DNA of 64,000 nt. Origin: Ostreococcus lucimarinus (Eukaryota). A program made the position numbers and the translations under genes. The stretch lies in assembly GCA_000092065.1 (NCBI GenBank), contig CP000589.1. One strand, 5' to 3'. Positions 14,024-59,761 of this stretch are shown here, piece by piece (position 1 is the stretch's first letter; every line of letters starts with the position of its first letter). The notes under the pieces are model-generated. The model searched no databases, was not told where the DNA came from, and was given only the letters and a program-made list of their open reading frames with translations.

Positions 14024-14726
14024 AAGATGCTCGGATTGGGTCTCAAGATCGCCGGATTCGGCGTCGGGTACTGCTACCCGACGTACAGCGCGTTAAAGTT
14101 GCTCGACAGAAAAGTCATCGGCCCGGAAGATGTCACGCTCTGGTTGACGTACTTCATGATCGCGTTCACGCTCGCGATCGGCGAGGCGATCGGCGTCGTG
14201 GGATGGTGCGCGTGACGGCGATCGCGTGCGATGCGCCGTGCGAGCGCGCGCGGACGCGTCTTCCGCGCGCGCGACGCGACGACGGGGAAAGATCATAATC
14301 GCCGGCTCGACCGCGCGCAAGATCTCGCCAGGCGCGCCGAGGCGAGCGAATGGGGGGACGACGGATGACTGACGCACGGTGTGACGTTTCGCGCTTTCTA
14401 CGACCAGGATTCCGGCGTACCGCATCATGAAGGTTTTATTCTGCGCGTGGATGGTGAATCCGCGCTTCAAGGGTGCCATCACGCTGTACAAGAAGGGCAT
14501 TCAGCCGATTTTTCACCAGCTGTCGCCGTCCATCGACAAGCACGCCGAAAACTTGAAGAAGGGTGATTTTGCGGCGATTCAACAAGAGTTGGGCCCGCAA
14601 TTCGCCAAGGTTCAAGAACTCGTGAAGAAGCACGGTCCGGAGGCGATTGAGCGCGCGATGAACTTGGCTGGCAAGGGTGACAAGAAGAACGCCGCGACGG
14701 CAGCCAACGGGACGAAGGCTGAATAA
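14024..14726 (+). CDS. HVA22/TB2/DP1 (REEP/Yop1) family protein, two exons with a probable intron at about 14196-14407
   Basis: Exon 1 has YCYPTYSALKLL..DVTLWLTYFMIAF. Exon 2 has IPAYRIMKVLFCAWMVNPRFKGAITLY in another frame. Together they match the HVA22 core (YP.Y.S..A.....WLTYW..Y and P.Y...K.....WL..P). The in-frame TGA at 14213 and the frame change imply splicing; donor and acceptor positions are not resolved. Confidence 0.6.
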
Positions 14727-14841
14727 ACGACGAAATGACCAGGCAGTGTTAGGAACAAACCTTTTAATCAACGACGATGTACTACGTGAAAATGAACAAA
14801 AACACGGATTCATAGATATTAGATAATACGTTCTTTCAAAA

Positions 14842-16179
14842 TCATCGCGGTGACGGCGAGGAGACGCGTCCTTTCTTCCCCGCCCGGACTTCGCTCGAGA
14901 GGATTTCATCCAGACGCTCGATGTCTCGGGCGCTGCCGCAGTGGAAGGGCATTCGCGAGTGCGCGGTGGACGGAACGAAACTCAACACGCTATCGTTGGC
15001 GCCAGATATAGCCAGACCACCCGCGCGCTCTATTATGGCAGCCATGGGAAAGCATTCGTACACGGCGCGAAGCTTTCCTTGAGCGTTTGACGAACACGCC
15101 GGGTAATGAAACGTGCCGCCGTAGAGCAACGTGCGGTGCACGTCTGCGACCATGGAACCGATGTAGCGAAGAGATTTTGAGCTCGCGCACTCATCAATGT
15201 ACGCTCGCGTGGCGTCGTCCCACTTTTTATAGTTCGCCTGGTTCACGCTGTACACGTTGCCGCTCTCGGGAATCCGAATATCGCGCTTCGTCAGCACGAA
15301 CGCGTCGCGATCGGCGTCGTACGTAAACGCGCACACGCCGCCGTGAGCGTCCTCCGACATGAAGCTCAAAACGAGCACCATCGACGCGCCGTACAAAACG
15401 TAACCGACGGTAGACATGTCTCGTCCGGGACGCGCGTACACGTGCTCCGGCGATGATTCCGCGCCGACGTCGACGAGCCCGAAAATCGTCCCGACGCCGA
15501 CGCCGCACTCGATGTTCGAGCTTCCATCCAAAGGATCGAAAACGACGGCGATTCGTCCGTCGACGTTCGCGGTGACGATATCTTCGCTCTCCTCGCTCGC
15601 GATCCACGCGCATCGCCCTCCCTGTATTAATTCTTTCACGCACACTTCGTGCGCGGCGTCGTCCAGCGCCGCTTGCTCTTCGCCGTGCACGTTGACGGCG
15701 CCGTTCTTCCCCTCGACGAACGCCTTGACGTCCTTCAACCCAGCGCGCCGCACGAATCCTCCTATGCGCACGCACGCCTTCGCCATGGATCGCACCACGC
15801 TCGCCTCATCCTCTGCGATCGCGCTCGACGCCGCGCCTTCGCTCGACGCCGCCCTCGCGGCGAGCGCGGCGTCCAAGTATCGCTCCAGCGTCGTCTCCCC
15901 GATTTCCAACGCTCCCCGCGTCATCTCGACCGACATCGAGCGTCGACCGATCGCGCGCGCGGGTTCGGTGTCACCGATGCGCGCGCCGCGCGCGCCCTTA
16001 TCGTCGTCGTCGTCGTCGCGTCGACCGCTCGACACGAATCGCTCGCCGTGCCCAGCGCTTCGCGCGCGCGAATGCGCGACGCGCGCGCGCGCGTCCGGAG
16101 CGCCTCGTCGCCGCGAGCGCGCGGTGCGGTGGTGAAGGTGAAGGTGAATGCGCGTGCGGTGTGCGTGCGATAACGTCAA
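14842..16179 (-). CDS. FBP: Fructose-1,6-bisphosphatase class I family (FBPase/SBPase-type), probably plastidial
   Basis: [20 protein letters not shown] metal-binding motif and [21 protein letters not shown] active-site signature. Low-complexity N-terminus; true start uncertain. Confidence 0.7.
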
Positions 16180-16351
16180 TCGGGCGTGCGTCGCCGTCGT
16201 GTCGGTGTCCTCGGAGTGCGGTCGTCGTCCGTCGCAAGATTAAGATTGATTTCCAGGTGTTGGCCGCGCGCGTCGAAAATCGGATTTCCCCGACCGCGCG
16301 GTCGGCGATCGACGTCGACGCGACGTCACTTTCGAGACGACGACGACGACG

Positions 16352-44760: not shown

Positions 44761-47418
44761 TTGCGAGCGATGGCGCGCGAAGACGGCGCGCGACGCAAGG
44801 AACGCAAGGACGAGCGCACGGTGGCGATGGAGAAGATGGTGATGGAACTCGCGGCGGCGGCGGCGGTGGTGGATGGGAATAAAACGTCGGTGAGCGAACG
44901 GGCGAGCGGGGCAAGCGGCGGGAGCAGCCTGACGAGGGCGCCGGACGCGGAGCGAGAGCGCGAGGAGGGACAAGCGTTGACGTTGGACGCGTTGGTGATG
45001 GCGAGCGCTGGATCGAATAAAAGAGCGAAGAGCGCGGGCGTTAAAGTGGCGAAACGGAAGAAGATGGAAGATAAGGGGGAGCGAAGGTGGTATTGTTGCT
45101 CGTGCAAGCAGACGCTGACGCCGGAACACTTCGATCCGAATTTGGAGACGTGTCGGTTGTGCTTGGCGAAACGTCGAGCGAAAGATCGGGCGAAGAAACG
45201 ACTTCGAGGGCTTCAGCTCAAGCATCACTTGTTGAGTGCGGATGAGAAAGATGTGGCGGCGTTTTTGTTGGGAGTGTATCATCCGGCGCTCACGCAGCAA
45301 GGGCCGCGATCTTCATCTTTTAACTCCATACAGATGAACGTGCAACGAGCGTCGATGGAAGTGAGCGCATTCGTAGAGGACTTCCGCAGCTTCCTCGAGG
45401 ACAAGCCCAAGGAACAAGCGGACAGATTGGTCCGCACGTTTTTGGGTTTGGACGATGCTGGAGAAAGGCTCACACCTCATCAAGTGATCAACGAGAAGGG
45501 TTCCGCGAAGAGGAATACGATGTCATCCAAAGCGAATAGCGCAAAGGCGACGCACAACTATCGCGCCCCAGCTTCATCGATGGGTGGCCGGCAAGAGTTG
45601 ACGAAGAGCCTGGACACCGTATACGATAAGTACGACGCGCTATTGAAAAACACCAGCGATGATCAAACGTGGGTTCGTTTCGCGGCGGAGAACGAGCAGG
45701 ACACTGATCTGGATGCTGAGAAGGTCAACTATTCCGCACCGATACATGAATCAGCTGCCGAAACCGGCACAAACGAGAAGGATGACGTGTACAGCGCCAT
45801 CATGCACGGCGCGGATCCCACCGTCAGTCATTACCTGTATCAATTCTTGTTCATGAATCAGCCGACAATCGGAGGCGAACACAGCACGATGGTCGTGGAG
45901 AGTGATCTCCCACAGCTTACGGGCCAGCTTCCATTGCGCGCAGTCGATAGCCTTTCGGAAGGGTCCAGCTTAAATGGTGCGACTAATGTGAGCTCGGAAT
46001 CGGACAACGTGTACAACACCTTGGATGAAGAGGAGCTGAACGGCAACGCATACGCGTTCAAGGGCTCGCTCGTGATGGGTTGGATTGGAGGCGCTCGTGA
46101 TGGAAAGAGAGAACTGCTAGCGAAAGAGAACGGTATCCTTCCGGACGATATGCACCCGCAAGCTGTGTTTAGCCATGGAAGACTGTTCGACGCGCGCACG
46201 CCTGGGAAGTTGGTTCCTCTCACCGAGACGGAGAACTTACACGGGTTTTCAGAAGATCTTGCGATTTTCCCCGTCAAGGATTCTTCGTCTGACATCGTTC
46301 GCATTCATATTCCGCCGGGATCTTTCAGCGAGGAGCTCGGTGTGAGAGCGTTGCACGATGGTCACTACATCGATTCTGAACTTCGCCACAGGCGCAACGG
46401 CGGAGCCGAGGTGATCCTATACCCGAACGGTAGAGACGATCGAGAGCGCAACGCAATCGTTATCCTCGGTGCTGTTCATTTACAATGTTTCGTTCGTAGC
46501 GGTACGGCGAAACAGATGCCTATCGGTTGCAACATCCCAGCGCTCTTCATACCGAGCCAAGCGCACGCGAAAGAGATTAGCGATGGCGTAGAGCACATTG
46601 CGCAAGTCAAGGGTACGAAAGCGGCCCGGCAGTTTTTGTCTTCGCTCGCGTACGTACTTGTGCACGGCGAACCAAAGAGCGCTAAGTTTGAGTTTGTCGT
46701 CGAAATGGCGCACATCCTCGCGCTCACGAGAACTTTGGATCTGCTCGAGCGATTGGCGATGTTGGCAAAGTCGTCGCTATCGAGCGATGATTCAGACACT
46801 TCTATCTCCGAAGTAGCGAGATTAGAAGTCTATAAGCCCTCGGATAATTTCTGGCAACACGCCGGTCATACCGACTCTTTTCTTGGAATCCTCCTTTGTC
46901 TTGTTGCGGGATTTATCCGTCTTATCGCTTCGGCTGTGAGCGGAGCGCGACTGAATTATGGATTCTATGCCACGCTCTTGGCCGCGGCCGCGCTTTCGGC
47001 AACGAACCCGAAGACCCGTGTAGACATCAAAAGCATTGCCTTCAACATGCTTTTTATCTGGGCACACGCAGCATCCATGCACTCAGATGATCTGACCAAT
47101 CAAATGACGTCTTACGGCAAGGCGCTGGTCATCACGCTTGCGCTCTCGGCACTGAACGCCTCGCATTCGCGCATGAGCAGCTCGTCAAGCTTTGTGTTAC
47201 CACAGCTCGCCTTTGCCGGAAGTGGCTATAACCCACACACCATTTTCCGCTTTATGAAGCAAGCGTTGCCTCAGGACGGAAGTATACCACAAAACGCGCT
47301 GCGAGCGCACGCCTGGACCGTTCACATCAGTTGCGCACTGCTGGCACCCGCGATCCTCATCTCTTGTATTTCGCAACTTCCAGGTGCACGAGTTCGCTCA
47401 AAATCTAAGCTTGCGTGA
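44761..47418 (+). CDS. Hypothetical protein (885 aa) with N-terminal Cys-rich motif (WYCCSCKQ..CRLC) and C-terminal hydrophobic helices; lower GC than flanks
   Basis: Long clean ORF; no family recognised. Confidence 0.45.
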   Translation: MRAMAREDGARRKERKDERTVAMEKMVMELAAAAAVVDGNKTSVSERASGASGGSSLTRAPDAEREREEGQALTLDALVMASAGSNKRAKSAGVKVAKRKKMEDKGERRWYCCSCKQTLTPEHFDPNLETCRLCLAKRRAKDRAKKRLRGLQLKHHLLSADEKDVAAFLLGVYHPALTQQGPRSSSFNSIQMNVQRASMEVSAFVEDFRSFLEDKPKEQADRLVRTFLGLDDAGERLTPHQVINEKGSAKRNTMSSKANSAKATHNYRAPASSMGGRQELTKSLDTVYDKYDALLKNTSDDQTWVRFAAENEQDTDLDAEKVNYSAPIHESAAETGTNEKDDVYSAIMHGADPTVSHYLYQFLFMNQPTIGGEHSTMVVESDLPQLTGQLPLRAVDSLSEGSSLNGATNVSSESDNVYNTLDEEELNGNAYAFKGSLVMGWIGGARDGKRELLAKENGILPDDMHPQAVFSHGRLFDARTPGKLVPLTETENLHGFSEDLAIFPVKDSSSDIVRIHIPPGSFSEELGVRALHDGHYIDSELRHRRNGGAEVILYPNGRDDRERNAIVILGAVHLQCFVRSGTAKQMPIGCNIPALFIPSQAHAKEISDGVEHIAQVKGTKAARQFLSSLAYVLVHGEPKSAKFEFVVEMAHILALTRTLDLLERLAMLAKSSLSSDDSDTSISEVARLEVYKPSDNFWQHAGHTDSFLGILLCLVAGFIRLIASAVSGARLNYGFYATLLAAAALSATNPKTRVDIKSIAFNMLFIWAHAASMHSDDLTNQMTSYGKALVITLALSALNASHSRMSSSSSFVLPQLAFAGSGYNPHTIFRFMKQALPQDGSIPQNALRAHAWTVHISCALLAPAILISCISQLPGARVRSKSKLA

Positions 47419-47509: not shown

Positions 47510-48553
47510 TCACGTTGCCGCGCCCGTTGTGTACAATTCCATCGCCAAACTCACTAGTGCGATGCTAATGATTATTCGCAGCGGCATCGTCTCGTGTTCG
47601 ATACATACGTGAATGATGGCGACCACGAGCATCGACAGCGCGGACACAAAACATTTGTAAATGTTGTCCAGGTACTTCAGAATGAAAGACACTGCCAACC
47701 CGCCGAACGACAGGACGACCAAACTTACCCAAGCATAAAAGTTGAATCCGGTAAAAAGTCCATTCTTTAACGCTTCTCCTTTCCAAACTATTGGAATCGC
47801 ACCACAAATCACGCCCCAAAAGTACAGTTGCATATTCTGCCAATGAATGCTATCCGTCGCCCCGTCTTGGTTGCTGCCCTTGAGCAGCTTCTCCGACAAC
47901 ACACTCCCGGACGCAGCGATGAACGTGTTTATCACCACAAGCACGTACCCATACACACTCCCGCGTAACTGATTAGAATCTGTGATCTCCGCCGTGACAG
48001 ATCCCAATAATAACAAGAACAGCGCTCTCCACTGCAACGAAGTTAACCGCCGCCCGAGCAGCGTCCACATCAGCACCCCGGTACTTAAAATTTTCAAGTT
48101 ATTCATGATCTGATACGTCGACGGCCCCAGTTCTTGTATGATGAGGAGCATACAGTTATTCGCGACGAAATAGCACAGCGCGGGAAGCGCAAACGAGGTG
48201 AAGCGTTTCGCGCTCCACGTCACTTCTTCGACTCCTCCGCACGCCCGCGACGTCGTCAAAAAGATGAACGACAACACCAGCTTCACCGACTCCATCGTGA
48301 ACGCCAGCACCACGGTATCGTACGGATAATCATCATCACTGTTCCGGCTCAGACTCGCGAATATCGTTCCCGCCACTTGCAGGAACAAGTACGACACCAT
48401 GCTCAACACCTTGATCGACAGCGGCGTTTCCGTCCTTCCGTCGCTCTTCTTCTCGGTCGGCGTCGCATCTCGCGCGAGTTCGCCGTCCGCATCCTTCCCA
48501 TCTCGCGCGAGCAGCGATTCGCGCTCATTCGCGCTCGCGCTCGCGCTCGCCAT
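47510..48553 (-). CDS. Nucleotide-sugar transporter (SLC35A UDP-Gal/CMP-Sia transporter family)
   Basis: 10-TM layout. YFVANNCMLLIIQELGPSTYQIMNNLKILSTGVLMWTLLGRRLTSLQWRALFLLLLG aligns to the conserved SLC35A2 core. Confidence 0.8.
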   Translation of the reverse strand: MASASASANERESLLARDGKDADGELARDATPTEKKSDGRTETPLSIKVLSMVSYLFLQVAGTIFASLSRNSDDDYPYDTVVLAFTMESVKLVLSFIFLTTSRACGGVEEVTWSAKRFTSFALPALCYFVANNCMLLIIQELGPSTYQIMNNLKILSTGVLMWTLLGRRLTSLQWRALFLLLLGSVTAEITDSNQLRGSVYGYVLVVINTFIAASGSVLSEKLLKGSNQDGATDSIHWQNMQLYFWGVICGAIPIVWKGEALKNGLFTGFNFYAWVSLVVLSFGGLAVSFILKYLDNIYKCFVSALSMLVVAIIHVCIEHETMPLRIIISIALVSLAMELYTTGAAT

Positions 48554-48663
48554 CGCGTCGGTGTCTGCCGCAACGAACGATGGGTGTTACGTCGCGCGAG
48601 CCATCGCGGCAGACGCCGACGCGATTCGCGTCGTTCGCGGACGAAGCGACCGCGCGCGAACCA

Positions 48664-49955
48664 TGGAATGCGTCGATTCTCTCGACGACACCGCGCACGC
48701 GGAGGACGGGCACGAGGAGTACTGCGCGGACACGGCGGTGTCGACGGCGCGCGTCCGGACGCTGCCGAAGACGCGCATCGTCGCGCGAAACGCGTGCGCG
48801 ATCACGGGCGCGAGCGACTTCGAGCCGCTGCTCACGCTGCGAGATTTTCCGGTGGGGATGTACTGCGTCCCGGAGGAGTGGGACGGCGTGGAGTACGTCG
48901 CGGACATGCGATGGTGCGTGAGCAAGAGCTCGGGGGTGATCCAGCTCGCGGAACTCATCGAGGCGGAGACGCTGTATGATTGTCAACACGAGAGCGGCGC
49001 GATCGGAGGACTGTGGAAGCGACATCACGAAGAATTTTGTGAGTTTATCGATGCGTACGGATGTGAGAGCGTGTTGGAGATCGGCAGTGGACACGGACAT
49101 CTGGCGAAGGAGTTTGTCGCGCGAAGACGCGGGAAATGCCGATGGACAATGGTGGAACCGAACTTGCCGAGTTGGTTGCTCACGGGTGATCATCCGAGCG
49201 AAATTCACCCGATCTCGGCGTGGTTTTGTGATTCGTTCGAATTACCGAAAGACGTACCGAAAATCGACGCTGTGGTACATTCGCACACGTTTGAGCACAT
49301 CTACGATTACGACGAGTTTCTTCGCAACGTGGCAAGAATGGAACCCAAGTTTCAAATATTTTCGGTGCCACACCAGCGGGAATGGCTGGCGCGTGGTTGG
49401 CAAAATAGCATCATGTTCGAACACCCGCAACTGTTGACGCCGAAAGCGATCGAGTACATTATGTCACGTCACGGTTTCGAGTTGCAAGGAAAGAAAGTTT
49501 TCGCCGACGGGCACTCAATGTTTTACGCGTTTTCATACGCGGGAAACGCGAGCAAAAGCGAGACATCGCAGCAATCTCTCGATGAGTACGCAGAGAACAA
49601 GCGTCTTTTTCGTAACTGGCTCAAATCCAACGTTGATTTCGTCCAGAATGTGAACGATCGCATCGATGAAGCGACTATGAATGGAGAAAAGCCAACAGTT
49701 TACATGTTTGGGGCGCACATCTTCACGCAGTACCTCGTCAGCTTTGGATTGCGTATATCCGCAGTTGAGGCGATTTTGGATAACGCCGAAGGAAAGCAAG
49801 GAAAGAGACTGTACGGCCTTCCTCTCTTGGTGCACTCTCCGAAAATTCTCTCTAATGTAGAACGACCAATCGTCATCTTACGAGTCGGCGCGTACGCCGA
49901 AGAAATAAAACGCGGCATTCTCGAAGTGAACGCTCGCACGGTCTTTTGGGAGTAA
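48664..49955 (+). CDS. SAM-dependent methyltransferase with TylCIII-type architecture (NDP-hexose C-methyltransferase-like; bacterial sugar-modification type)
   Basis: VLEIGSGHGHL glycine-rich SAM motif. HSHTFEHIYD..FEHPQLLTPKAIEYIMSRHGFEL middle domain. C-terminal domain VYMFGAHIFTQYLV..ILDNAEGKQGKRLYGLPLL as in C-methyltransferase C-terminal domains. The ORF track begins at 48399, but that extension overlaps the transporter gene, so the start was set at the Met at 48664. Confidence 0.65.
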
Positions 49956-50025: not shown

Positions 50026-52347
50026 TCACGCCATGACACTTGTCACACCCCGCGCGGCCCACTCGGCGTCGTACAAATGCGTAAACGCATTGGCCAGCCT
50101 TAAAATGTACATGAAGGGAAAGTTGGGTTCGCTGAGCTTGCTCGCATCGATGCACCCGAACCACACAGCCACAAACAAAGGAAATCCAGCCAAAGCGCTG
50201 CTTACTTGTGCGATGCGCTCATCTTTCGGTACGACGACGTTGTCCAACTTTTGCCTAGAATCATAATACGTGTTGACGAGCACTTCGGCCAATTGTTCAA
50301 AGTCCTCTATGTCACAGCTCTCGACGAGAAGGAACACGATGTCTTCGATACCTTGACCTGGGCGCGCGTACTGCCAATCAATAAAGATTGGTTCGCCGCC
50401 GTTCACTTGATAATCCCAGAATAAATTTGGAAATTTGAGGTCACCGTGAAGAAGCGTTTGCGGAGCTCTTCGAAGTCGCAGCTCGGCGTCCGCAAAGTTT
50501 GCCGCCGCGTGGTCAAACAGCACGAAAACTTGTTCACCGAGCGTATTGAACCATCGATTTCGAAACGTTGCGTAGTGTTCTTGCACGTGCTGTCGCATAT
50601 ACGTGTCATAAACCGATAGCCTTCCCAACGGCGCGCCTCGGAAGTGTGAATGCAACCTCGCCATCGTGTTCACCACCTTGAGGCCGCTTTCAAGACAAAA
50701 GTCTGGCGCTCGATCATACTTTCGTAAATCCTCCATGACGATAGCGCGTGACGTCGGAAGGACGCCGTAGCAGATCGGTACACGTACCGGCATGATACTC
50801 GCAAAATCTTCATAGAACTTACACTCGGTGTCGTGAAGGTTCAAGTGTTCGCTCACCTCCATCAAGACTCCGTGATCAGAGTTTTCTTGCTTCACCACAA
50901 GATGTCTTGAACCGGAGGTCGCCGAAAGAATTTCAGAAATGTAGCCACCGCTTGCTCGAATCGGATACACAACGGATCGTTGACCCAATACTTCGGACAG
51001 TTCGTTAGAAAGGTGCGCCACAGAATTCATCGTCTCCAATAACTCCTCTGGGTCTTCAGCGACATAATTCGCGATAAACGAATCGCTGCCTGACACGTTT
51101 GTATTAACAGAGACGACGTATTGGCATCCCGCTGCGCGTCCGGAAATCAAACCGCATCGAGAGTCCTCGAAGACAATGGAGTTTCCGATCGAGACTCCAA
51201 GTCTTCTCGCCGCTTTCAAGTACGGCTCCGCGTTTGGTTTACCAAATCTCACGTCACTCGCGGAAATAAGCGGTAAATCATCCAATGCAAGATGTTTCAA
51301 CAAAGCTTTGGCGGCGGTTCTGTTGGAATTAGTCACTACGGACACTGGTCCGAGCGCACGACACTTTTGCACAAATTCCACCGCGCCTGGAATTTCTTTG
51401 GTCTTTTCGATGTATCGCAAGAACGCTTCGTCTTTCTGCTCTGACGAAATCTGCAGCTTGAAACGCTGCGCGACTTGGGCGTCAGATTGTCCGCTGATGT
51501 GTTTGAGGAAGAATTCTTCGTCGACAAACGCGCCCATCGGAGCGAGGATCTCGCGCCAAGCCGCGACGTAGGCATCCGTGGTGTCCACAAGAGTACCGTC
51601 CAAATCAAACAAAAATGCATATCCCTGTTTGGACAAGTACTGCTCTAAACACTCAGGCGTACCGATGTTCGAGTATTGGTCCTCAGCGATGACGACGGAG
51701 CTGACGTGCTTGTCTCGCGCGACGTACTCTTTCAAAACGCATGAAACGTACGCCTCGCCGCGCTCAAACTTTCCTTCTTGAGTCAAAATATCCTTCGTCA
51801 ATTCAAGAAATTCTTTTTCACTCGCGAACCAGTACGCTCCAGTGTTCGCGTAAGGACCCACGCGCGACTTCTCCGCGATTTTGGTCACGCGTCCGCCGTC
51901 CCCGCTCGTCTCAACGTATGAATATTTTGCCGCCGTCTCACGCTCACGCGCGGATTCCTCAAAGCACAGGACCGCCGCGCGCACCTCCGGTTGTTTTTCC
52001 AGCGCCCGAAACCGTTCGATGACGTCGCAATGATACACCGCATCGCAGTCCACCAACAGGAGCGACGCGTCGTTTGTCGCCGACACCGTCCCCAGCGCGA
52101 GCGCCGCCGTCTCCGCCGCCCCGACCGTCGCACGCGCCAAGCGCACCGTGGTGAACCCTCGTTCGGGGACGGAATCATCGAAATTCGTCACCACGACGCA
52201 CGTGTCGCGGTTGTCATCGACGCACAGCGCTTCCGTGACGACGTGTATCATCGCCTTGCCGATCACTGGGATGAGCGGCTTGATGTCTTCGTAGCCTTGC
52301 GCTCGGAAGCGCTCGCCGCGTCCACACGCTGGAATGAGGACGCGCAT
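50026..52347 (-). CDS. Tri-domain fusion enzyme: sugar-phosphate nucleotidyltransferase (LicC/MurU-like) + HAD-IA hydrolase (beta-PGM/phosphatase-like) + APH/choline-kinase-fold kinase
   Basis: N-terminal VLIPACGRGERF..KPL (G-x-G-x-R NTP-transferase motif). Middle FLFDLDGTLVDT (HAD motif I) with further HAD motifs. C-terminal LLHGDLKFPNLFW and IFIDWQYA (Brenner catalytic-loop and DFG-equivalent motifs of APH/ChoK kinases). Confidence 0.75.
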   Translation of the reverse strand: MRVLIPACGRGERFRAQGYEDIKPLIPVIGKAMIHVVTEALCVDDNRDTCVVVTNFDDSVPERGFTTVRLARATVGAAETAALALGTVSATNDASLLLVDCDAVYHCDVIERFRALEKQPEVRAAVLCFEESARERETAAKYSYVETSGDGGRVTKIAEKSRVGPYANTGAYWFASEKEFLELTKDILTQEGKFERGEAYVSCVLKEYVARDKHVSSVVIAEDQYSNIGTPECLEQYLSKQGYAFLFDLDGTLVDTTDAYVAAWREILAPMGAFVDEEFFLKHISGQSDAQVAQRFKLQISSEQKDEAFLRYIEKTKEIPGAVEFVQKCRALGPVSVVTNSNRTAAKALLKHLALDDLPLISASDVRFGKPNAEPYLKAARRLGVSIGNSIVFEDSRCGLISGRAAGCQYVVSVNTNVSGSDSFIANYVAEDPEELLETMNSVAHLSNELSEVLGQRSVVYPIRASGGYISEILSATSGSRHLVVKQENSDHGVLMEVSEHLNLHDTECKFYEDFASIMPVRVPICYGVLPTSRAIVMEDLRKYDRAPDFCLESGLKVVNTMARLHSHFRGAPLGRLSVYDTYMRQHVQEHYATFRNRWFNTLGEQVFVLFDHAAANFADAELRLRRAPQTLLHGDLKFPNLFWDYQVNGGEPIFIDWQYARPGQGIEDIVFLLVESCDIEDFEQLAEVLVNTYYDSRQKLDNVVVPKDERIAQVSSALAGFPLFVAVWFGCIDASKLSEPNFPFMYILRLANAFTHLYDAEWAARGVTSVMA

Positions 52348-52572: not shown

Positions 52573-53208
52573 CTAGCACGTGGGTCCACGCGCCGCGGGC
52601 CGCTCGGGAGGCGCCGGCTTGGCCGCCGCCGAGCCCGCGGCCTCAGCCTCAGCCGCGGCCGCGGCCGCGCGCTTCTCGAGCCAGTCTTTGGCTCGCTCGC
52701 GGTATTTAGCGTTCGCCTCTGTACTAATCTTGTTTGCCGCGTTACAGGCATTGATCATCGTCGTGTTGCCCTCAGAGATTCCGTGACACCAATGCACACC
52801 CATCCCGTCGCGATCCGGCCACGCCGAGTGCCCTAACGATATGCCGCGACGGACGTTGCAGTGGGCGTAGTCCGCCACGTGAAAAATAGATGCCTCAGGA
52901 CTCATTTGTGAACGGGGACTTACGCACGCGACGCTTTTCAATACATCCGTTCCTTGACCCCAAAAAGCATTGGCGCGCGAACTGTGCACGACGTAAAAGG
53001 CGTCGTTGTACTTCCAATACCAGTCCTCGTCAAAGATAAGCGTAGGTTGGACAGCGTCCGTGTCGTGGTTCGTGTCCCGACCGTCCCACAACGTCCTGGC
53101 AAAGTCCACGGGCGGTGGCGCGTACCAAAAGTACTCGGGTCGACCGTGCATGTACCACGAAAAGTGTATGTTTTTCTCCTTCTCCACTTTACGCGCCATG
53201 CAAAGCAA
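52573..53208 (-). pseudogene. Truncated tandem paralogue of the C-terminal half of the 53237-54394 gene
   Basis: LCMARKVEKEKNIHFSWY..PPPVDFARTLWDGR..FDEDWYWKYNDAFYVVHSS is colinear with LCMARKVEQEKNIHFSWF..PPPVDFATTLWDGR..FDEDWRHKYNDALYAVHSS. No N-terminal half present. Confidence 0.5.
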
Positions 53209-53236: not shown

Positions 53237-54394
53237 CTAGCACGTCGGTCCCATCGATTGCATCGGCGGGTCGTCGGCGTACGCGTTCAAAGAGCGCCAG
53301 TGGCTTACTTGCGCTCGGTAAACTTTAGTCTCTGACACACTAATTGCCTGGGCACGCTCGCACGGATGTATGTGCCTCTGAAGTGTGTAATCTACGCAAC
53401 TCAGCGTACCTTGTCCTGGCTTTGCGGTTGGCCGAGCCGATCGCTCGAACCCGATTCCCACGGCCCTCGACGCCGCCCCGACGAGGTCTACCACTTTGTG
53501 AAGGGCTGTCTCCGGAGTCATACGTTCAAGGAAGACGTGACCGGTCGCGGGGATCTCAGCTCGGCATGGTAATTTCGACAAAATCGATGACCCTGGGCCC
53601 AGTATACCATCGGCGTGCGAACTGTGCACGGCGTATAAGGCGTCGTTGTACTTGTGACGCCAATCCTCGTCAAAGATGAACGCGTGCGCGCTGTCTGTAC
53701 CCCTACCGTCCCACAACGTCGTGGCAAAGTCCACGGGCGGCGGCCCGTACCAAAAGTAATCGGGTCGACTCCGAACGAACCACGAAAAGTGTATGTTTTT
53801 CTCCTGCTCCACTTTGCGCGCCATGCAAAGCAGCCTTTTGCTCAAATCGAACTGCGCGTACGTCGTCGCCGGCGAAAAGTAGTCGTCTTTTTTCACCTTG
53901 AATCCACGCGCAGCGCAATGCTGTCCCCAAGGATCCTTCGTGTCTAAGTCATAAGCCGAGGCCGTGTAAAACGAAACCGCCACGGGTCGAATGACGTCCA
54001 GCGCGCGTTGCAGCACGTGCGGATACACCTTTGGAAACATCGCCGATCGGTCTCGCCACCCGCTCACGTCTGCGATACTCAGGAGCATGATCGGGTGCAC
54101 GTTCACGCAGCGCTCCGCCATCCAATCCAGCACATTCGTCTTCAAACCCTTGGAGACGTGATCCAACACCATCCCGCGCACCGATCCTCCGATGAGGAAC
54201 GCGACGTCCGCGCGTCCCTCCGCGCACGACTGCGCGCCGAGCGCGTCGCGCCGCGCCGTCGCCGACGCGACGACGATCGCCACCGCCGCGATCAGCGACA
54301 ATAACGACCCAACGCGCGTCCGTCGCGCGCTCCTAGAGCCATCATCGCCGATGAGCGGCGTCGCCTCGTCCGTCATCGCGCCGCGAACACCCAT
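53237..54394 (-). CDS. Type-II membrane (Golgi-type) protein of unknown function, possibly a glycosyltransferase-like enzyme
   Basis: Short cytosolic tail, TM anchor (VGSLLSLIAAVAIVVASA), large luminal domain. Paralogue fragment immediately downstream. Confidence 0.45.
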   Translation of the reverse strand: MGVRGAMTDEATPLIGDDGSRSARRTRVGSLLSLIAAVAIVVASATARRDALGAQSCAEGRADVAFLIGGSVRGMVLDHVSKGLKTNVLDWMAERCVNVHPIMLLSIADVSGWRDRSAMFPKVYPHVLQRALDVIRPVAVSFYTASAYDLDTKDPWGQHCAARGFKVKKDDYFSPATTYAQFDLSKRLLCMARKVEQEKNIHFSWFVRSRPDYFWYGPPPVDFATTLWDGRGTDSAHAFIFDEDWRHKYNDALYAVHSSHADGILGPGSSILSKLPCRAEIPATGHVFLERMTPETALHKVVDLVGAASRAVGIGFERSARPTAKPGQGTLSCVDYTLQRHIHPCERAQAISVSETKVYRAQVSHWRSLNAYADDPPMQSMGPTC

Positions 54395-54421: not shown

Positions 54422-54612
54422 CGACGCGCGTCGGTTTTCGCGTCGCCGCGCGCGCGACGCGCGTCGGTTTTCGCGTCGCCGCACCGCGCGCGCGATGGTG
54501 CGTCGCACAGTGCGACGCCGATGCATCGCATCGCGCGCGTCGCCATGTCCTCGGCGCCCCTGCACGACGCGCGCGCGCGCGGAAGGATGTCCGACGCGAA
54601 GGATGTCCGACG
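54422..54612. repeat. Near-identical segmental duplicate of 56904-57048 (5' end and start codon region of the S9 peptidase gene), with internal 32-bp and 12-bp tandem duplications
   Basis: Direct by-eye alignment; 2 mismatches. Confidence 0.85.
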
Positions 54613-54617
54613 TATCA

Positions 54618-55015
54618 ATACGTCGACGGCCCCAGTTCTTGTATGATGAGGAGCATACAGTTATTCGCGACGAAATAGCACAGCGCGGGAAGCGCAAACG
54701 AGGTGAAGCGTTTCGCGCTCCACGTCACTTCTTCGACTCCTCCGCACGCCCGCGACGTCGTCAAAAAGATGAACGACAACACCAGCTTCACCGACTCCAT
54801 CGTGAACGCCAGCACCACGGTATCGTACGGATAATCATCATCACTGTTCCGGCTCAGACTCGCGAATATCGTTCCCGCCACTTGCAGGAACAAGTACGAC
54901 ACCATGCTCAACACCTTGATCGACAGCGGCGTTTCCGTCCTTCCGTCGCTCTTCTTCTCGGTCGGCGTCGCATCTCGCGCGAGTTCGCCGTCCGCATCCT
55001 TCCCATCTCGCGCGA
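54618..55015. repeat. Segmental duplicate of 48113-48510 (N-terminal ~134 codons of the nucleotide-sugar transporter gene, minus strand), 398 bp, essentially identical
   Basis: The antisense ORF 54615-55565 reproduces ARDGKDADGELARDATPTEKK...QELGPSTY of the transporter. Confidence 0.9.
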
Positions 55016-55188
55016 ACAGCGGTTCGCGAGTCTGGAAAGCGCTTCCGTGCGGTACAAGCGAGTCGCCCCAATAGGAGTAGGTGTAGCCTAGCTGTAGCTG
55101 TAGCTCCGTCGCCGACAAATGTCCGACCGATCGACAGAGACCGACGCGCGTCCGCAGCCGACACTGCGCGCGCCCACGCGACGCGAGA

Positions 55189-56742
55189 ATGAGTGACAAA
55201 GACGCGCAAAGCATCTCTCGCGGCGAGCGCTCGAATTTGCTCGCGCGCAACGCCGCGAACGGCGTCGTTGAGGGTGTTGCGAGCATCCTGGACGAAGAGC
55301 GCGGTGAGACCGACGTGAGCGAGCGATCCCGAGCGAGAACGTCGACGTCGCGAGGATGTCTCGCGAGTGTTGCGCTGATGGCGTGTGCGGTCGGCGCGGG
55401 GATGGCGGTCGCGTCGCGCGGGGGGGTCGACGACGCGAGGACGAGCGCACGAGCTCGCGGCGGTGGGAAATCGACGCTCGGGATCAGTGGAGCGACACGA
55501 GCTCGCGGCGGTGGGAAATCGACGCTCGGGATCAGTGGAGCGACGGGAGTGCGGACGTATATCATAGCAGATACGTCGCCCGGAGACGAGATGGAGAGAT
55601 CTAGGAAAGGACGCGATTACGTGTTCAACCTGTTCAAAACGCACGGTGGTTTGAGCGACGCCGAAGCGCGCAATACTGTGGAAATCTCGAGTGCGACGTT
55701 TCCTTCGCTTTGGCCGGATACCTTCGAGACAGCGCGAAGCGCGACGCACGATGTACTAGCGGGAGCCCTTGCTGCTTCAGAAGCGAACGTTCCAACCAGT
55801 GAGTTGCCGTATCCCATCAGACAGGTTCACGAATCGCAGCTCAATCCACAGCACCGTTGCGTCGGCGAAAAATGCGTATTCCCGTATAACCACCACCTTG
55901 GATGTCTTCTATCTCACATGTCTGTGTGGAAGAAAGCTATTTCGCGAGGTGAGGATCGGTTTGCCGTGTGGGAGCAAGATGGTATGGGGATCGCTTCCGT
56001 GAGCCCGCTTGACTACACAGAGCTCGGACGCCAGCTTCCTCGCGACGCAGATATGGTCTGGCTCCTCCCCATTGGAAGAAGCACCGGTCAATTCGTGAAA
56101 AAGTTCCGCTCAAGGGCGTTTGGCACGTGGGGGAAAGGTACCTGGGGTCTCGTAAAGACAGACTGGTCGCCCGAATCGATGCACACGGCGATGAATTCAA
56201 CGCACGTTTATTTGTACAAGTGGAACAAAATGTGCTCGTGGGCAGGAACGGCAGCTCTCATGTTCACCAAGCAAGGCGTCGAGAAAATTCTTCGGTACAG
56301 TACCGAACACAGTCTCGACATGATCGATGCTTTCCTCATTGGCGGATGCATCCATAAATCGGGAAAGACGAGTCGTCTTTCCTTGAACTGTTATCACGCG
56401 TCGAGCGTGCCAACCAAGAAAGAGCTCCTGGGTGGAATCGTGCCCGATTGGTACACTGACGAAACCGTGGGCGATCGAGCACTTCCTCAAGAGCAGGTTG
56501 ACGCCATGGATCGGGATGACGCCAAGTTCAACTCGCTTGGTTGTCAGCGCGGCGGCGACGAGTTCAAGTCAAAATCTGCCTGGATTCCCACGTCCTGGGC
56601 TGGAGACGACTCCGCGGATTCGTGCGTTCCCTCCTGGAACGCCCCGGTGGACGTGTGCGATGCATCCGTGAAGTATCCACTCGATGGACACAAGTACTCA
56701 TACCTCGGCAGCGCGATGTTGCGTACAAAGCCCGAGCGTTAG
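55189..56742 (+). CDS. Type-II membrane glycosyltransferase family 25-like protein
   Basis: N-terminal TM anchor. GCLLSHMSVWKKAISRGEDRFAVWEQDG resembles the GT25 motif (GC.LSH...W..I......IFEDD). Contains an in-frame 48-bp duplication. Confidence 0.55.
   Translation: MSDKDAQSISRGERSNLLARNAANGVVEGVASILDEERGETDVSERSRARTSTSRGCLASVALMACAVGAGMAVASRGGVDDARTSARARGGGKSTLGISGATRARGGGKSTLGISGATGVRTYIIADTSPGDEMERSRKGRDYVFNLFKTHGGLSDAEARNTVEISSATFPSLWPDTFETARSATHDVLAGALAASEANVPTSELPYPIRQVHESQLNPQHRCVGEKCVFPYNHHLGCLLSHMSVWKKAISRGEDRFAVWEQDGMGIASVSPLDYTELGRQLPRDADMVWLLPIGRSTGQFVKKFRSRAFGTWGKGTWGLVKTDWSPESMHTAMNSTHVYLYKWNKMCSWAGTAALMFTKQGVEKILRYSTEHSLDMIDAFLIGGCIHKSGKTSRLSLNCYHASSVPTKKELLGGIVPDWYTDETVGDRALPQEQVDAMDRDDAKFNSLGCQRGGDEFKSKSAWIPTSWAGDDSADSCVPSWNAPVDVCDASVKYPLDGHKYSYLGSAMLRTKPER
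55451..55546. repeat. 48-bp tandem duplication x2 inside the GT25-like coding region (encodes ARARGGGKSTLGISGAT twice)
   Basis: Seen directly. Confidence 0.85.
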
Positions 56743-56968
56743 CGACGCTTGTAAAGAAACAGCCTAGGGGTGCTTGAATCCGGTATTGGGAATTTCCCGA
56801 TACGTATCAAAAACGACTGTTTTCATACTGTTTGCCCATACGAAAAGCCTAATACGTTGATACGCCAATACGGTATCAGCTCGTATCAAGTGCAGCAGGC
56901 CTAGACGCGCGTCGGTTTTCGCGTCGCCGCACCGCGCGCGCGATGGTGCGCGGCACAGTGCGACGCCG

Positions 56969-59761
56969 ATGCATCGCATCGCGCGCGTCGCCATGTCCTC
57001 GGCGCCCCTGCACGACGCGCGCGCGCGCGGAAGGATGTCCGACGCGAAACGCGCGCTCGTCGCGCGCGCGAGAGGCGCGTTCGACGCCGTCGCGGGACGG
57101 CGTCGACGCGTGAACGTCGCGAGCGGTGGTGACGAACGCGGGACGACGACGCGGGAGGACGCGCGCGCGAGCGATGGGGACGACGCGAACGGGTACCGAC
57201 GCCCGCCGGACGCGCTGACGCAGTTCACGGAGCGACCGCAGAGCCCGAACGTGACGGTGTCGCCCGATCGAAGGCGCTTGCTGTATTTGCACAAACCGCC
57301 GCCGCTGCCGGACGTGGCGACGCTCGCGCGAGAGGAGGTGAAACTGGCGGGCGTGCGGATCGATGCGGCGCAAAATTCGACGTCGAGGATGGGACATCAA
57401 ACGAAATTGGCGATCGGAGCGATGCCTGCGAGAGAGGAGGAGATCGGAGCGGCGGAAGATTTCGTCGGGACTCCGGAGAACGCGCTGATTAACTACGTGA
57501 GTTGGTCGCCGGATGGGACAAAGATAGCGTTTACGACGCGCTCGAGCGGAGAACCGGGTGAGCCAGAGCGAGGACCGTTGACACTTTGGATCGCCGACGC
57601 GCACACGCGACAGTGCCGAGTGCTGCTTCCCGATCGTGGGTTGAATACTATTTTTGAGTCGTACAGTTGGTTGAACGACGACGTCATCGTCGCGTGTTGC
57701 ATTCCAGAAAATCGACCCAAGGAAGCGCCGAAGCGACCGCAGACGCCGTTCGGGCCGAGAATTCAAACAAACCGAGGTGGTAACGTGGCACAGGCGCGAA
57801 CGTACGCCGATTTATTGAAAGACTCGCACGATGCGGATTTATTCGATTACTATTGTTCGTCGGAACTCGTGGCGGTGGACGTCTCCACCGGGGCGACGAA
57901 GACTTGGGGTGATGGAAAGGCGAGAATCTACACGCGCTGCGATCCGTCGCCCGACGGAAAATATGCTATCGTCGAAGCCATTCATCGGCCCTACTCGTAC
58001 TCGGTGCCGTGTGGTAGGTTTCCAAAGAAGGTTTGGGTGGCGGACAGCGACGGCAAAGTCGTGCGCGAGGTCGCGGACTTACCTTTGGCCGAGAATGTGC
58101 CCATCGTGCACAACGCCACGCGTAAAGGACCTCGTGCGGTGAACTGGCGTTCGGATAAGAGTGCGTCGTTGTACTGGACCGAGGCGCAAGATGAGGGTGA
58201 TCCGAGAGTCGAAGTCTCCCCTCGAGACGTCACGTACACGGTCGACGTCGGCAAAGATCCTGCGGCGACGCCCAAGACGCTGTTTCAAACTGATTATCGC
58301 TACGGTGGCGTCGCATGGGGCGGCGATGATATGTCGATTTTATATGAGAGTTGGTACAAGACACGCACGTCGCGAGTGTGGGTGACTTCGCCGGGCGACG
58401 CCGATCCGAATGCGACAAAGCGCATGCTTTGGGAGCGCGACTACGAAGACAGTTACAACGCTCCCGGTTCATTTGCTACACGCCGGACGGAAGATGGATC
58501 GTACATTCTGGCGCGTGTCGTCGGACCGACGCCGTTGGGAGAAGGTAAACCCACGGGTCCGGGAGTGAAGCTGTTGTTGCAGGGAGACGGCGCGAATCCA
58601 GAAGGCGATAGACCCTTCATCGACTTGTTCGACGTCGACACCGGCGCCAAGCATCGAATGTGGGAAAGCAAACCGCCGTATTTGGAGCATCCGGGGAGTT
58701 TGATCAGCGATTACGGCGGCCCCGAGGCGGCGCCTGTCACGCTCGAAACTATGCGCATATTGTTCTCTCGAGAGAGCCCGTCGGAGAATTCGCAATTCTT
58801 TTCGCTTCAAATGACCGCCGACGGCTCGCCCGGAAAAGAGGTGAAAATTTCAAATTTCCCTCATCCACATCCCGACTTAAAGGAGCTGCCGAAGGAAATA
58901 ATCAAGTACAAGCGCGACGACGGCGTTGAGCTCAACGGCACGCTGTACACGCCGCCCGGGTACGACGCCGCGCACGATGGTCCGCTACCACTCCTGATGT
59001 GGGCTTATCCACGAGAGTTCAAAACAAAAGAAGCTGCATCGCAGCTACGCGATTCACCGTATCGCTTCACCGGTATCGGCCCATCGAGCGCGTTGGTGTG
59101 GCTTGCGCGTGGATACGCAGTGCTCGACGGGCCGGCGTTGCCCATCATCGGCGAAGGCGAGGGTGTGGAACCGAACGATACGTACGTCGAACAACTCGTC
59201 GCTGGCGCGCGTGCGGCGGTGAACGAAGTCGTTGCGCGCGGTGTCGCGGATCCGGAGCGCATCGCTGTCGGCGGTCACTCGTATGGCGCGTTCATGGCGG
59301 CGAATTTGCTCGCGCACGCACCGGATTTGTTCGCGTGCGCCATCGCGCGAAGCGGGGCATACAATCGAACGCTAACGCCTTTCGGGTTTCAAGCCGAAGA
59401 ACGCACGCTGTGGGAAGCGCCGGAAACGTACAACGCGATGTCACCGTTCATGAACGCGCACAAGATTAAAAAGCCGATTTTATTGATCCACGGCGAGGAG
59501 GATCAAAACAGCGGTACCCATCTCATGCAATCCGAACGCTTCTTCTCCGCTCTCAAGGGTAACGGTGCCGAGGTCAAGCTTGTCATTTTACCGCACGAGT
59601 CTCACGGCTATCGCGCCAAAGAAAGCATCAACCACATGCTCGCCGAGACGTCTGATTGGCTGGACGCGCACTGCGCGCCAGGGGCGAAGAAAGCCGCCGA
59701 GGCGCGCGCGGAGGAAGCCGCCAAGGCGAAGCGCGACGCCGAGGAGATGGTTTCGAAGTAA
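56969..59761 (+). CDS. S9 family serine peptidase (prolyl oligopeptidase / glutamyl endopeptidase CGEP-like), organelle-targeted
   Basis: N-terminal beta-propeller region and a C-terminal alpha/beta hydrolase with GGHSYGA (GxSxG), plus downstream Asp and His (HESHGY). Confidence 0.8.
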   Translation: MHRIARVAMSSAPLHDARARGRMSDAKRALVARARGAFDAVAGRRRRVNVASGGDERGTTTREDARASDGDDANGYRRPPDALTQFTERPQSPNVTVSPDRRRLLYLHKPPPLPDVATLAREEVKLAGVRIDAAQNSTSRMGHQTKLAIGAMPAREEEIGAAEDFVGTPENALINYVSWSPDGTKIAFTTRSSGEPGEPERGPLTLWIADAHTRQCRVLLPDRGLNTIFESYSWLNDDVIVACCIPENRPKEAPKRPQTPFGPRIQTNRGGNVAQARTYADLLKDSHDADLFDYYCSSELVAVDVSTGATKTWGDGKARIYTRCDPSPDGKYAIVEAIHRPYSYSVPCGRFPKKVWVADSDGKVVREVADLPLAENVPIVHNATRKGPRAVNWRSDKSASLYWTEAQDEGDPRVEVSPRDVTYTVDVGKDPAATPKTLFQTDYRYGGVAWGGDDMSILYESWYKTRTSRVWVTSPGDADPNATKRMLWERDYEDSYNAPGSFATRRTEDGSYILARVVGPTPLGEGKPTGPGVKLLLQGDGANPEGDRPFIDLFDVDTGAKHRMWESKPPYLEHPGSLISDYGGPEAAPVTLETMRILFSRESPSENSQFFSLQMTADGSPGKEVKISNFPHPHPDLKELPKEIIKYKRDDGVELNGTLYTPPGYDAAHDGPLPLLMWAYPREFKTKEAASQLRDSPYRFTGIGPSSALVWLARGYAVLDGPALPIIGEGEGVEPNDTYVEQLVAGARAAVNEVVARGVADPERIAVGGHSYGAFMAANLLAHAPDLFACAIARSGAYNRTLTPFGFQAEERTLWEAPETYNAMSPFMNAHKIKKPILLIHGEEDQNSGTHLMQSERFFSALKGNGAEVKLVILPHESHGYRAKESINHMLAETSDWLDAHCAPGAKKAAEARAEEAAKAKRDAEEMVSK

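Follow-up and report, generated by a model that had tools for sequence, protein, structure and literature searches.

A putative one-chain nucleotide-sugar synthase with nucleotidyltransferase, phosphatase and kinase domains in Ostreococcus lucimarinus and giant viruses

The minus-strand gene at positions 50026-52347 of a 64,000-nucleotide stretch of Ostreococcus lucimarinus DNA (GenBank assembly GCA_000092065.1, contig CP000589.1; the whole stretch is hereafter called the window) encodes a single polypeptide in which a nucleotidyltransferase (NTase), a HAD phosphatase and a small-molecule kinase follow one another in a fixed order. On balance, we favour the reading that this protein is a genuine, probably cytosolic, trifunctional enzyme that converts a sugar or sugar phosphate into a nucleoside diphosphate (NDP)-sugar within one chain. 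The gene and its three domains are located as follows.

50026-52347, minus strand: single-exon NTase-HAD-kinase gene, 773 amino acids, stop codon included, colinear with 95 full-length homologs (open reading frame and translation)
51637-52347, minus strand: predicted NTase domain of the sugar-1-phosphate type, amino acids 1-237 (Pfam PF00483, match to PDB 4evw, AlphaFold (AF2) model, Foldseek)
51028-51618, minus strand: central HAD subfamily-IA (C1-cap) phosphatase domain, amino acids 244-440 (Pfam HAD_2, TIGR01509, residue comparison)
50038-51000, minus strand: C-terminal small-molecule kinase domain of the APH/choline-kinase/EcKL fold, amino acids ~450-770 (Pfam APH and EcKL, AF2, Foldseek)

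The initial annotation, made from the letters alone, had described three separable catalytic domains in one uninterrupted frame, and both the open reading frame (ORF) and the Pfam matches bear this out. The frame runs from ATG to stop through 773 codons with no internal stop, and the matches to the three domains do not overlap one another. NTP_transferase (PF00483) covers amino acids 4-234 (37.7 bits against a gathering cut-off of 21.2), HAD_2 covers amino acids 246-411 (79.7 bits against 23.8, with the HAD_2 and Hydrolase matches together spanning 244-411), and the kinase region is recognized by both APH (557-689; 41.7 bits against 23.2) and EcKL (579-697; 39.3 bits against 22). The motifs on which the annotation relied are found at amino acids 6-14 (PACGRGERF), 248-256 (DLDGTLVDT), 634-641 (HGDLKFPN) and 656-661 (IDWQYA). 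Introns that might divide the domains between different genes had been considered as well, and the gene reads through without any. In an alignment of 96 family sequences, the proposed start codon falls at the N-terminus of the family (consensus MNIIIPLCGxGERF). Two independent metagenome contigs carry calls for an identical protein, and the NTase-HAD-kinase order recurs in more than 100 full-length homologs; the gene is thus real and not a chance ORF in GC-rich DNA. Moreover, 20 canonical catalytic residues tallied over the three domains are each kept in at least 94 of the 96 aligned members, where the replacement of Thr339 by Ser in two members is counted as conservative. The retention of these residues in all three domains argues for joint selection on three activities.

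The N-terminal domain is predicted to be a sugar-1-phosphate nucleotidyltransferase. Its key residues (G9-x-G11-x-R13, K23, D100/D102 and E159-K160) are each invariant or present in 95 of the 96 members; G9, G11, R13 and K23 are kept in at least 95, and the E-K motif is invariant. Its score, its G-x-G-x-R loop with the accompanying lysine and its GT-A-like Rossmann fold place the domain in the sugar-phosphate nucleotidyltransferase superfamily PF00483. When the family profile is compared with the PDB, entry 4evw matches over the whole domain (E = 7e-27). The AF2 models of the NTase and kinase domains, for which family sequences were supplied as the alignment, each have a mean predicted local distance difference test score of 95, and a Foldseek search with the NTase model again returns 4evw first (template modelling (TM) score 0.84), followed by RmlA, UGPase and GDP-Man PPase at 0.73-0.78, with ST0452 also among the matches. 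NCBIfam matches of the domain are to archaeal GlmU-type, AglF and RmlA families. The closest solved relative is therefore the stand-alone Vibrio cholerae RC9 protein of entry 4evw, which is named ‘nucleoside-diphosphate-sugar pyrophosphorylase’ and has no assigned substrate; with it belong alphaproteobacterial relatives, which are not fused, form sets of two or three tandem paralogs and lack an associated APH-fold kinase.

The central domain belongs to HAD subfamily IA (C1 cap), as first annotated from its motifs. TIGR01509 (HAD-SF-IA-v3) scores 56.9 bits against a cut-off of 29.4, and the motif residues D248-x-D250, T339, K370 and E394-D395 are retained: D248, D250, K370, E394 and D395 do not vary, and residue 339 is T in 94 of the 96 sequences and S in the other two. 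The cap residue Asp289 and N342 are also invariant, and an R or K occupies position 343, next to motif II, in 88 of 96. The nearest solved relatives include the sugar-phosphate phosphatases TM1254, the MtlD phosphatase domain, Gpp1 and YfbT-like proteins, as well as beta-phosphoglucomutases (beta-PGMs) and the BT2127 pyrophosphatase, so that two roles other than simple phosphate removal must be weighed.

In the first of these, the kinase would produce a sugar-6-phosphate and the HAD domain would act as a beta-PGM-type mutase to supply the 1-phosphate to the NTase. The top NCBIfam match of the domain is indeed the beta-PGM/YqaB subfamily (E = 6.5e-25), many beta-PGM structures match, and the beta-PGM hinge residue Thr16 aligns with conserved T256. 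However, the equivalog model for beta-PGM (TIGR01990) reaches 56.7 bits against a cut-off of 189.4. Furthermore, when a beta-PGM reference sequence is used for comparison, Arg49 and Lys117, which we take to be the binders of the distal phosphate, appear to correspond to invariant Asp289 and invariant Asn342, respectively. We regard a mutase role as decidedly unlikely. In the second scheme, the kinase and NTase would salvage a free sugar while the HAD domain served as a BT2127-type pyrophosphatase that pulls the NTase reaction forward. Removal of pyrophosphate would be chemically useful, other viruses have kinase-NTase proteins that lack a HAD domain, and BT2127 structures are among the best single-sequence PDB matches of the domain (E ~2e-16), with an NCBIfam diphosphatase match at E = 1.8e-17. 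That model (NF053653) nevertheless scores 63.6 bits where 245 are required. Of the two residues that we presume to be markers of the BT2127 activity, Glu47 of the cap (mutated in PDB 3qub and 3quc) is aligned with a gap by HMMER and with a variable residue by MAFFT, and Asn172 of motif IV corresponds to the canonical Asp395 of the fused protein. In addition, stand-alone HAD-kinase fusions without an NTase, described below, would have no pyrophosphate to remove, and we judge this scheme to be quite unlikely. Because the marker residues differ, both the mutase and pyrophosphatase roles are disfavoured, and the simplest reading of the sequence makes this domain a conventional phosphomonoesterase with a sugar phosphate as its substrate.

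The C-terminal domain has the APH/choline-kinase fold that was originally proposed for it: Pfam APH and EcKL both score above their cut-offs, and Foldseek matches agree. Its catalytic machinery is intact and of the EcKL/choline-kinase type (HGDxKxxN, IDWQY...D...E), which places the domain in the APH/EcKL superfamily and answers an early concern that it might be a pseudokinase. Among the catalytic residues (K486, E508, H634-G-D636-x4-N641 and D657-W-Q), K486, E508 and D657 are invariant, and H634, D636 and N641 are present in 95 of the 96 members. The best Foldseek matches of the kinase model are PsiK, 5-methylthioribose (MTR) kinase, aminopropanol kinase, AmiN, LicA, NahK, choline kinases and APH enzymes, all with TM scores of 0.5-0.6 and 10-16% identity. 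The nearest structural relatives thus include two anomeric sugar kinases, MTR kinase and NahK, although NahK structures match at the level of fold only (TM 0.57-0.61, 11-12% identity). The same is true of LicA (4r7b, 16% identity), which has the highest target-normalised TM score (0.68). No NCBIfam family matches the kinase domain at E <= 0.01. The predicted fold lacks the power to reveal the kinase substrate, and the domain has no close characterised relative.

The same three enzyme classes, as separate proteins, make up the bacterial MupP-AmgK-MurU route that salvages N-acetylmuramic acid (MurNAc) to UDP-MurNAc, and the initial annotation had raised a fused version of this route as one possible function. 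Weak NCBIfam matches to MupP (E = 7.6e-12) and MurU (E = 8e-5) are consistent with the shared enzyme classes. However, the MurU equivalog model (NF045761) scores only 22.5 bits against a cut-off of 250, over residues 1-42, and the MurU structure 4y7t is matched at E = 0.38 over residues 1-43. The MupP equivalog model (NF009696) likewise reaches 45.4 bits against 359, and the kinase falls in no NCBIfam family. The hosts are a eukaryotic alga and giant viruses, the neighbouring genes encode glycosyltransferases (GTs), a methyltransferase and nucleotide-sugar transporters, and no peptidoglycan genes are found near the fused gene at either algal or viral loci. The assignment to MurNAc salvage is therefore abandoned as highly improbable.

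A second early suggestion was a pathway resembling that of LicA and LicC, in which choline, ethanolamine, glycerol or ribitol would be converted to a CDP-alcohol that decorates glycans or lipids. The kinase fold is of the choline-kinase/EcKL type, with LicA giving the top target-normalised match, some homologs carry weak precomputed Choline_kinase and IspD Pfam matches, some members bear the JGI names ‘choline kinase’ and ‘CTP:phosphocholine cytidylyltransferase’, and the closest relatives of a neighbouring transporter are CMP-sialic acid transporters. However, Pfam Choline_kinase (PF01633) does not match the window protein at E <= 0.1. The NTase domain bears the closest resemblance to NTases of the hexose-1-phosphate type, and the top 50 fold matches of its model do not include LicC. 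A sugar-phosphatase-like HAD domain would have no obvious role in such a pathway, and the methyltransferase that neighbours the gene resembles sugar C-methyltransferases. The protein is not classified as LicA/LicC-like on these grounds, and we consider an alcohol substrate unlikely. Overall, the fused protein falls in three well-known superfamilies yet fails the sequence-based tests for MurU, MupP, beta-PGM, BT2127 and LicA.

If each domain retains the activity typical of its class, the kinase and phosphatase might jointly place a phosphate on C1 of a sugar and so act as an ATP-driven substitute for a phosphomutase. The APH/EcKL-fold kinase would phosphorylate its substrate, probably at the anomeric hydroxyl, and the C1-cap HAD phosphomonoesterase would take off a non-anomeric (terminal) phosphate either before or after the kinase step. 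In one order, resembling that of MupP and AmgK, a sugar-6-phosphate would be converted to the free sugar and then to the sugar-1-phosphate. In the other, a sugar-n-phosphate would pass through a 1,n-bisphosphate to the sugar-1-phosphate, as occurs with GmhB in heptose and AcbJ in acarbose biosynthesis. The 4evw/RmlA-like NTase would then condense the sugar-1-phosphate with a nucleoside triphosphate. Judging from the gene neighbours described below, the product would probably be modified by an adjacent enzyme resembling sugar C-methyltransferases, after which a nucleotide-sugar transporter would import it into the secretory pathway, where glycosyltransferases would build a cell-surface glycan.

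Architectural variants of the family bear on the relationship between the kinase and the phosphatase. An exhaustive search that used the kinase domain as query yielded 207 cluster representatives at E <= 1e-10, most of which are three-domain proteins of 750-860 amino acids. However, HAD-kinase two-domain proteins without an NTase also occur (P0190, which has in-frame stops just upstream, and P0191, P0228 and P0280, which begin at HAD motif I), and these keep the cap Asp and the T-N-x-N/S-R/K signature. Their existence suggests that phosphatase and kinase form a functional unit, and it fits the proposal that the pair substitutes for a phosphomutase. Further variants include stand-alone kinases of ~340-350 amino acids and one NTase-HAD-kinase-kinase protein of 1321 amino acids. 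Besides the four HAD-kinase proteins, protein P0167 and locus L176 were recorded as architectural variants of the fused family.

Homologs of the fused protein fall into two clades that are reciprocally monophyletic in a midpoint-rooted neighbour-joining tree of the 96 sequences. The algal clade comprises 27 sequences (49-91% identity) and includes O. tauri ostta19g00470, which is represented by the only named close homolog, ‘Aminoglycoside phosphotransferase [Ostreococcus tauri]’ (62% identity, full length). The second clade comprises 69 sequences (26-100% identity), and identity between the clades is 27-36%. As judged from the gene content of its contigs, the second clade is a giant-virus clade, and one member labelled ‘[bacterium]’ likewise sits on a giant-virus-like contig. 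IMG/VR holds 278 relatives. We analysed the best 80 of these 278, each a full-length three-domain match and many of them on GVMAG contigs of up to 421 kb, and their loci have a median GC content of 0.29 and carry genes for nucleocytoplasmic large DNA virus (NCLDV) major capsid proteins, viral rhodopsins, TBP, dUTPase and DNA methylases. In 7 of the 80 loci (e.g. L060, 16155-16889, minus strand) a viral rhodopsin gene, and in 9 an NCLDV major capsid gene, is located no more than 8 kb from the fused gene, which hints that many of the viral carriers are alga-infecting relatives of mimiviruses. On two giant-virus contigs (L006 and L007), a second NTP_transf_3 protein of ~627 amino acids is encoded two genes from the fused gene (14407-16290, plus strand).

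No fused form was seen among the best prokaryotic matches. Across 185,579 bacterial and archaeal species genomes (one for each species), the best 80 matches are all single-domain proteins, 79 to the HAD and one to the NTase domain, a result that is dominated by the common HAD motif and falls short of proving that prokaryotes lack the fusion. A word-index search with the kinase domain alone returned just fragments of the algal family, and none of the UniProt-listed viruses in BFVD encodes a close kinase relative. Remote structural matches in BFVD include proteins of phages and of Klosneuvirus in which an APH-like kinase is joined to an NTase (ranks 1, 23 and 24; A0A1V0SE67 and A0A1V0SB89). A literature search for the fusion, for ostta19g00470 and for ‘trifunctional’ NDP-sugar enzymes turned up no characterisation and no enzyme of NTase-HAD-kinase architecture, in keeping with an early remark that this order is unfamiliar among characterised enzymes; public names are generic.

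Unfused relatives of two of the three domains are found together in bacteria. On alphaproteobacterial plasmids, within polysaccharide clusters, a conserved cassette comprises a hypothetical gene, a HAD gene and two fused or tandem NTase-fold genes, as observed in Ruegeria (L168), Azospirillum (L169 and L175) and Sinorhizobium (L174). The cassette HAD is 25% identical to the HAD of the fused protein (E = 6e-13), and the two main NTase domains match the family profile with E values down to 1e-46; the NTase-fold genes carry the PGAP label ‘glycosyltransferase family 2’. Both Azospirillum plasmids and that of Sinorhizobium encode an additional, more divergent NTase-fold paralog after these two genes, whereas in Ruegeria the two NTase genes are separated by a small cupin-like gene instead. 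A WavE gene comes next in three of four. The surroundings of the cassettes include a GmhA-type SIS_2 gene and, at one locus, a HAD-IIIA gene. No relative of the kinase was detected in the four cassette loci. The possibility that the ‘hypothetical’ genes are cryptic kinases was considered and rejected, and one of them is a third NTase-fold paralog. From these associations, the HAD domain is the hub of the system: its partner is the NTase in bacteria and the kinase in viruses, and the fused family unites all three.

The window in which the gene resides is nuclear DNA of ~60% GC without tRNA genes. Three sets of neighbouring genes are relevant to the proposed function.

48663-49955, plus strand: three-part S-adenosylmethionine (SAM) methyltransferase, 430 amino acids as called, convergent downstream neighbour (Pfam Methyltransf_23)
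47510-48553, minus strand: SLC35A-type nucleotide-sugar transporter, two genes downstream (Pfam Nuc_sug_transp, E = 9e-41)
52573-53208 and 53237-54394, minus strand: tandem paralogous ORFs of 211 and 385 amino acids, directly upstream (42% mutual identity)

The methyltransferase shows weak, end-to-end similarity to the NDP-sugar 3-C-methyltransferases MtmC (4rv9) and KijD1 (5t64), and on the basis of its sequence and position it is a probable functional partner of the fused enzyme. The best PDB match of the transporter is the CMP-sialic acid transporter 6i1r (E = 6e-33), which makes it a candidate exporter of the product into the Golgi or endoplasmic reticulum. The upstream tandem ORFs have no Pfam or PDB match and may belong to the same glycan module; a homolog of these ORFs adjoins the fused gene on the algal contig L172. 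Elsewhere, the window encodes fructose-1,6-bisphosphatase, alternative oxidase, ALG11, an M16 peptidase, histone deacetylases with ankyrin repeats, mitochondrial Rsm22, YchF and a Ser/Thr kinase. Apart from the local GC dip described next, this is an unremarkable housekeeping chromosome.

Several structural features of the region were also recorded. GC content dips to 0.49-0.55 between positions 45000 and 51500, against ~0.60 for the window, in a stretch that covers the transporter, the methyltransferase, the fused gene and, at its edge, an 885-amino-acid ORF (44761-47418, plus strand) that has no Pfam match and is found with 99.8% identity on an independent contig (L001). Recent gene transfer was considered as the cause of this dip and rejected. 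The GC content at third codon positions is just slightly lower in the fused gene (0.61) than in its neighbours (0.63-0.71), and the two clades, at 27-36% identity, are each monophyletic with respect to the other, so that nothing points to recent exchange between alga and virus. A perfect direct repeat of 300 nucleotides (48113-48412 and 54618-54917) reflects a segment of the transporter gene copied into an ORF at 54615-55565 (minus strand), whose C-terminal 137 amino acids are ~98% identical to the N-terminal part of the transporter; it stems either from a recent partial duplication or from an artefact of assembly. Upstream of the locus there is another direct repeat, 145 nucleotides long (99% identity; 54456-54600 and 56904-57048). 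Together, the two repeats suggest local structural plasticity.

The gene neighbourhood is partly shared with O. tauri. The ortholog, on record CAID01000019, likewise has a convergent methyltransferase gene, and the corresponding block contains two GT25 genes and a TPT-family transporter gene. The window methyltransferase is 68% identical to the product of the O. tauri neighbour ostta19g00460, which is named ‘C-methyltransferase’. The O. tauri gene order agrees with that of ostta19g00460-ostta19g00490 in S2 Table of Yau et al. 2016 (‘A Viral Immunity Chromosome...’), and the block is located on the small outlier chromosome 19, the ‘viral immunity chromosome’. In the OtV5-resistant lines reported there, all four genes are down-regulated: ostta19g00470 has a log2 fold change of -1.90, and ostta19g00460, ostta19g00480 and ostta19g00490 have values of -1.29, -2.56 and -1.24, respectively (Yau et al. 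2016). The link to virus resistance is thus a published transcript correlation for the O. tauri ortholog and not for the window gene.

Genes for glycan synthesis also surround the fused gene in giant viruses. Within 8 kb, GT25 and HtrL_YibB genes are each found in 19 of the 80 loci, the latter often immediately upstream, and GT11 (15/80), GT4 (10/80), GT47-like (9/80) and GT10 genes occur as well. A Methyltransf_13/23 methyltransferase gene is present in 18 of the 80 loci and is directly adjacent in ~10. The viral and algal methyltransferases are homologous (pairwise E = 9e-23 over the full length; best phmmer E = 9e-41), and among the algal neighbours the methyltransferase is the sole one that the viral loci have in common. 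The bacterial WavE and giant-virus HtrL_YibB proteins show no similarity detectable by phmmer.

The domain types, the retained catalytic residues and this context support the general idea, put forward in the initial annotation, that the three domains cooperate toward an NDP-activated donor. The context consists of the transporter and methyltransferase in the window, the GT25 and TPT genes in O. tauri, and the GT25, HtrL_YibB, GT11, GT10 and GT4 genes of the viruses. Several observations nevertheless weigh against the conversion of a sugar or sugar phosphate to an NDP-sugar as we propose it. The kinase is about equally far from sugar, choline, amine and antibiotic kinases, and phosphorylation at the anomeric position is only a guess. 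The order of the kinase and phosphatase steps is not decided by the sequence, in which two residues pull in opposite directions. Asp289, at the position where the beta-PGM reference sequence has Arg49, speaks weakly against a bisphosphate substrate, whereas R/K343 next to motif II speaks weakly for one. The bacterial cassettes, with no detectable kinase and with three NTase-fold paralogs, are not explained by the simple model. The methyltransferase gene is not adjacent on three other algal contigs, one of which ends right after the fused gene.

A HAD domain and a kinase that are fused can also oppose each other, as in the plant FMN hydrolase/riboflavin kinase. If the same were true here, the two domains would act as antagonists at one position, forming a homeostatic or proofreading pair and no linear pathway. 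This arrangement would be compatible with the HAD-kinase proteins that stand alone. However, the recurrent addition of an NTase and the adjacency of HAD and NTase genes in bacteria suggest a flow toward a nucleotidylated product, and we consider antagonism very unlikely.

The proposed route to an NDP-sugar resembles several known systems in its logic. In the NDP-heptose pathway, GmhA is followed by the kinase HldE or HddA, the HAD phosphatase GmhB and the NTase HldE or HddC. The likeness lies in an anomeric kinase, a HAD enzyme that strips a bisphosphate of its distal phosphate and a PF00483-type NTase; moreover, HldE is a kinase-NTase fusion, and bacterial relatives of the NTase and HAD domains of the fused protein lie near a GmhA-type SIS_2 gene. 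However, the kinase of the fused protein is of the APH/EcKL type rather than GHMP or PfkB, its HAD domain is of subfamily IA with a C1 cap whereas GmhB is a capless IIIA enzyme, the activities reside in one chain, and no isomerase partner is seen at the algal or viral loci. The protein does not classify with GmhB, HldE or HddC, and the resemblance is one of pathway logic only. By fold class, the closest system is that of MupP, AmgK and MurU, which likewise combines a HAD phosphatase, an APH-fold anomeric kinase and a PF00483-type NTase. These are separate bacterial proteins, the MupP and MurU equivalog models fail widely on the fused protein, and the context of the fused family is glycan synthesis. 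Bacteroides FKP, a sugar-1-kinase/pyrophosphorylase with a GHMP-type kinase, converts a free sugar to an NDP-sugar in one chain. FKP and the viral kinase-NTase proteins lack a HAD domain, and the viral examples are just remote structural matches to the fused family.

The experimentally demonstrated route of acarbose biosynthesis, in which the kinase acts first, is as good a precedent as MurNAc salvage. There, the 1-kinase AcbU forms valienol 1,7-diphosphate, the HAD-type phosphatase AcbJ removes the 7-phosphate only, and AcbR produces GDP-valienol (PMC9200736). The authors of that study noted that the kinase and phosphatase jointly replace a phosphomutase. AcbU, AcbJ and AcbR are separate proteins from an actinomycete secondary-metabolite cluster that act on a cyclitol, and the comparison is drawn from the published reaction order alone. 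By analogy, the fused protein appears to work like the three-enzyme routes of heptose, acarbose and MurNAc metabolism, and it apparently belongs to none of them.

A more extended proposal can be formulated, which we regard as speculative and, taken as a whole, unlikely. A hitherto unrecognised one-chain NDP-sugar synthase, with its kinase/phosphatase pair replacing a phosphomutase, would act together with the C-methyltransferase-like partner to produce a rare, possibly branched or methylated, nucleotide sugar. This sugar would be incorporated into the giant viruses' own glycans and, in Mamiellales algae, into a surface glycan that governs virus attachment, such that shutdown of the pathway would contribute to resistance.

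Nucleotide sugars are the currency of glycan synthesis. If a single chain does convert a sugar or sugar phosphate to an NDP-sugar, then this family would provide a new, compact route as well as a useful biocatalyst. With 278 IMG/VR relatives and 207 kinase-domain cluster representatives, the family is abundant, yet its members carry generic names only. Its presence in both giant viruses and Mamiellales algae makes for a striking distribution. Such an activity would extend the still small list of sugar routes encoded by giant viruses, and its product could point to a glycan that is relevant to virus-host recognition in eukaryotic phytoplankton that rank among the most abundant of the ocean.

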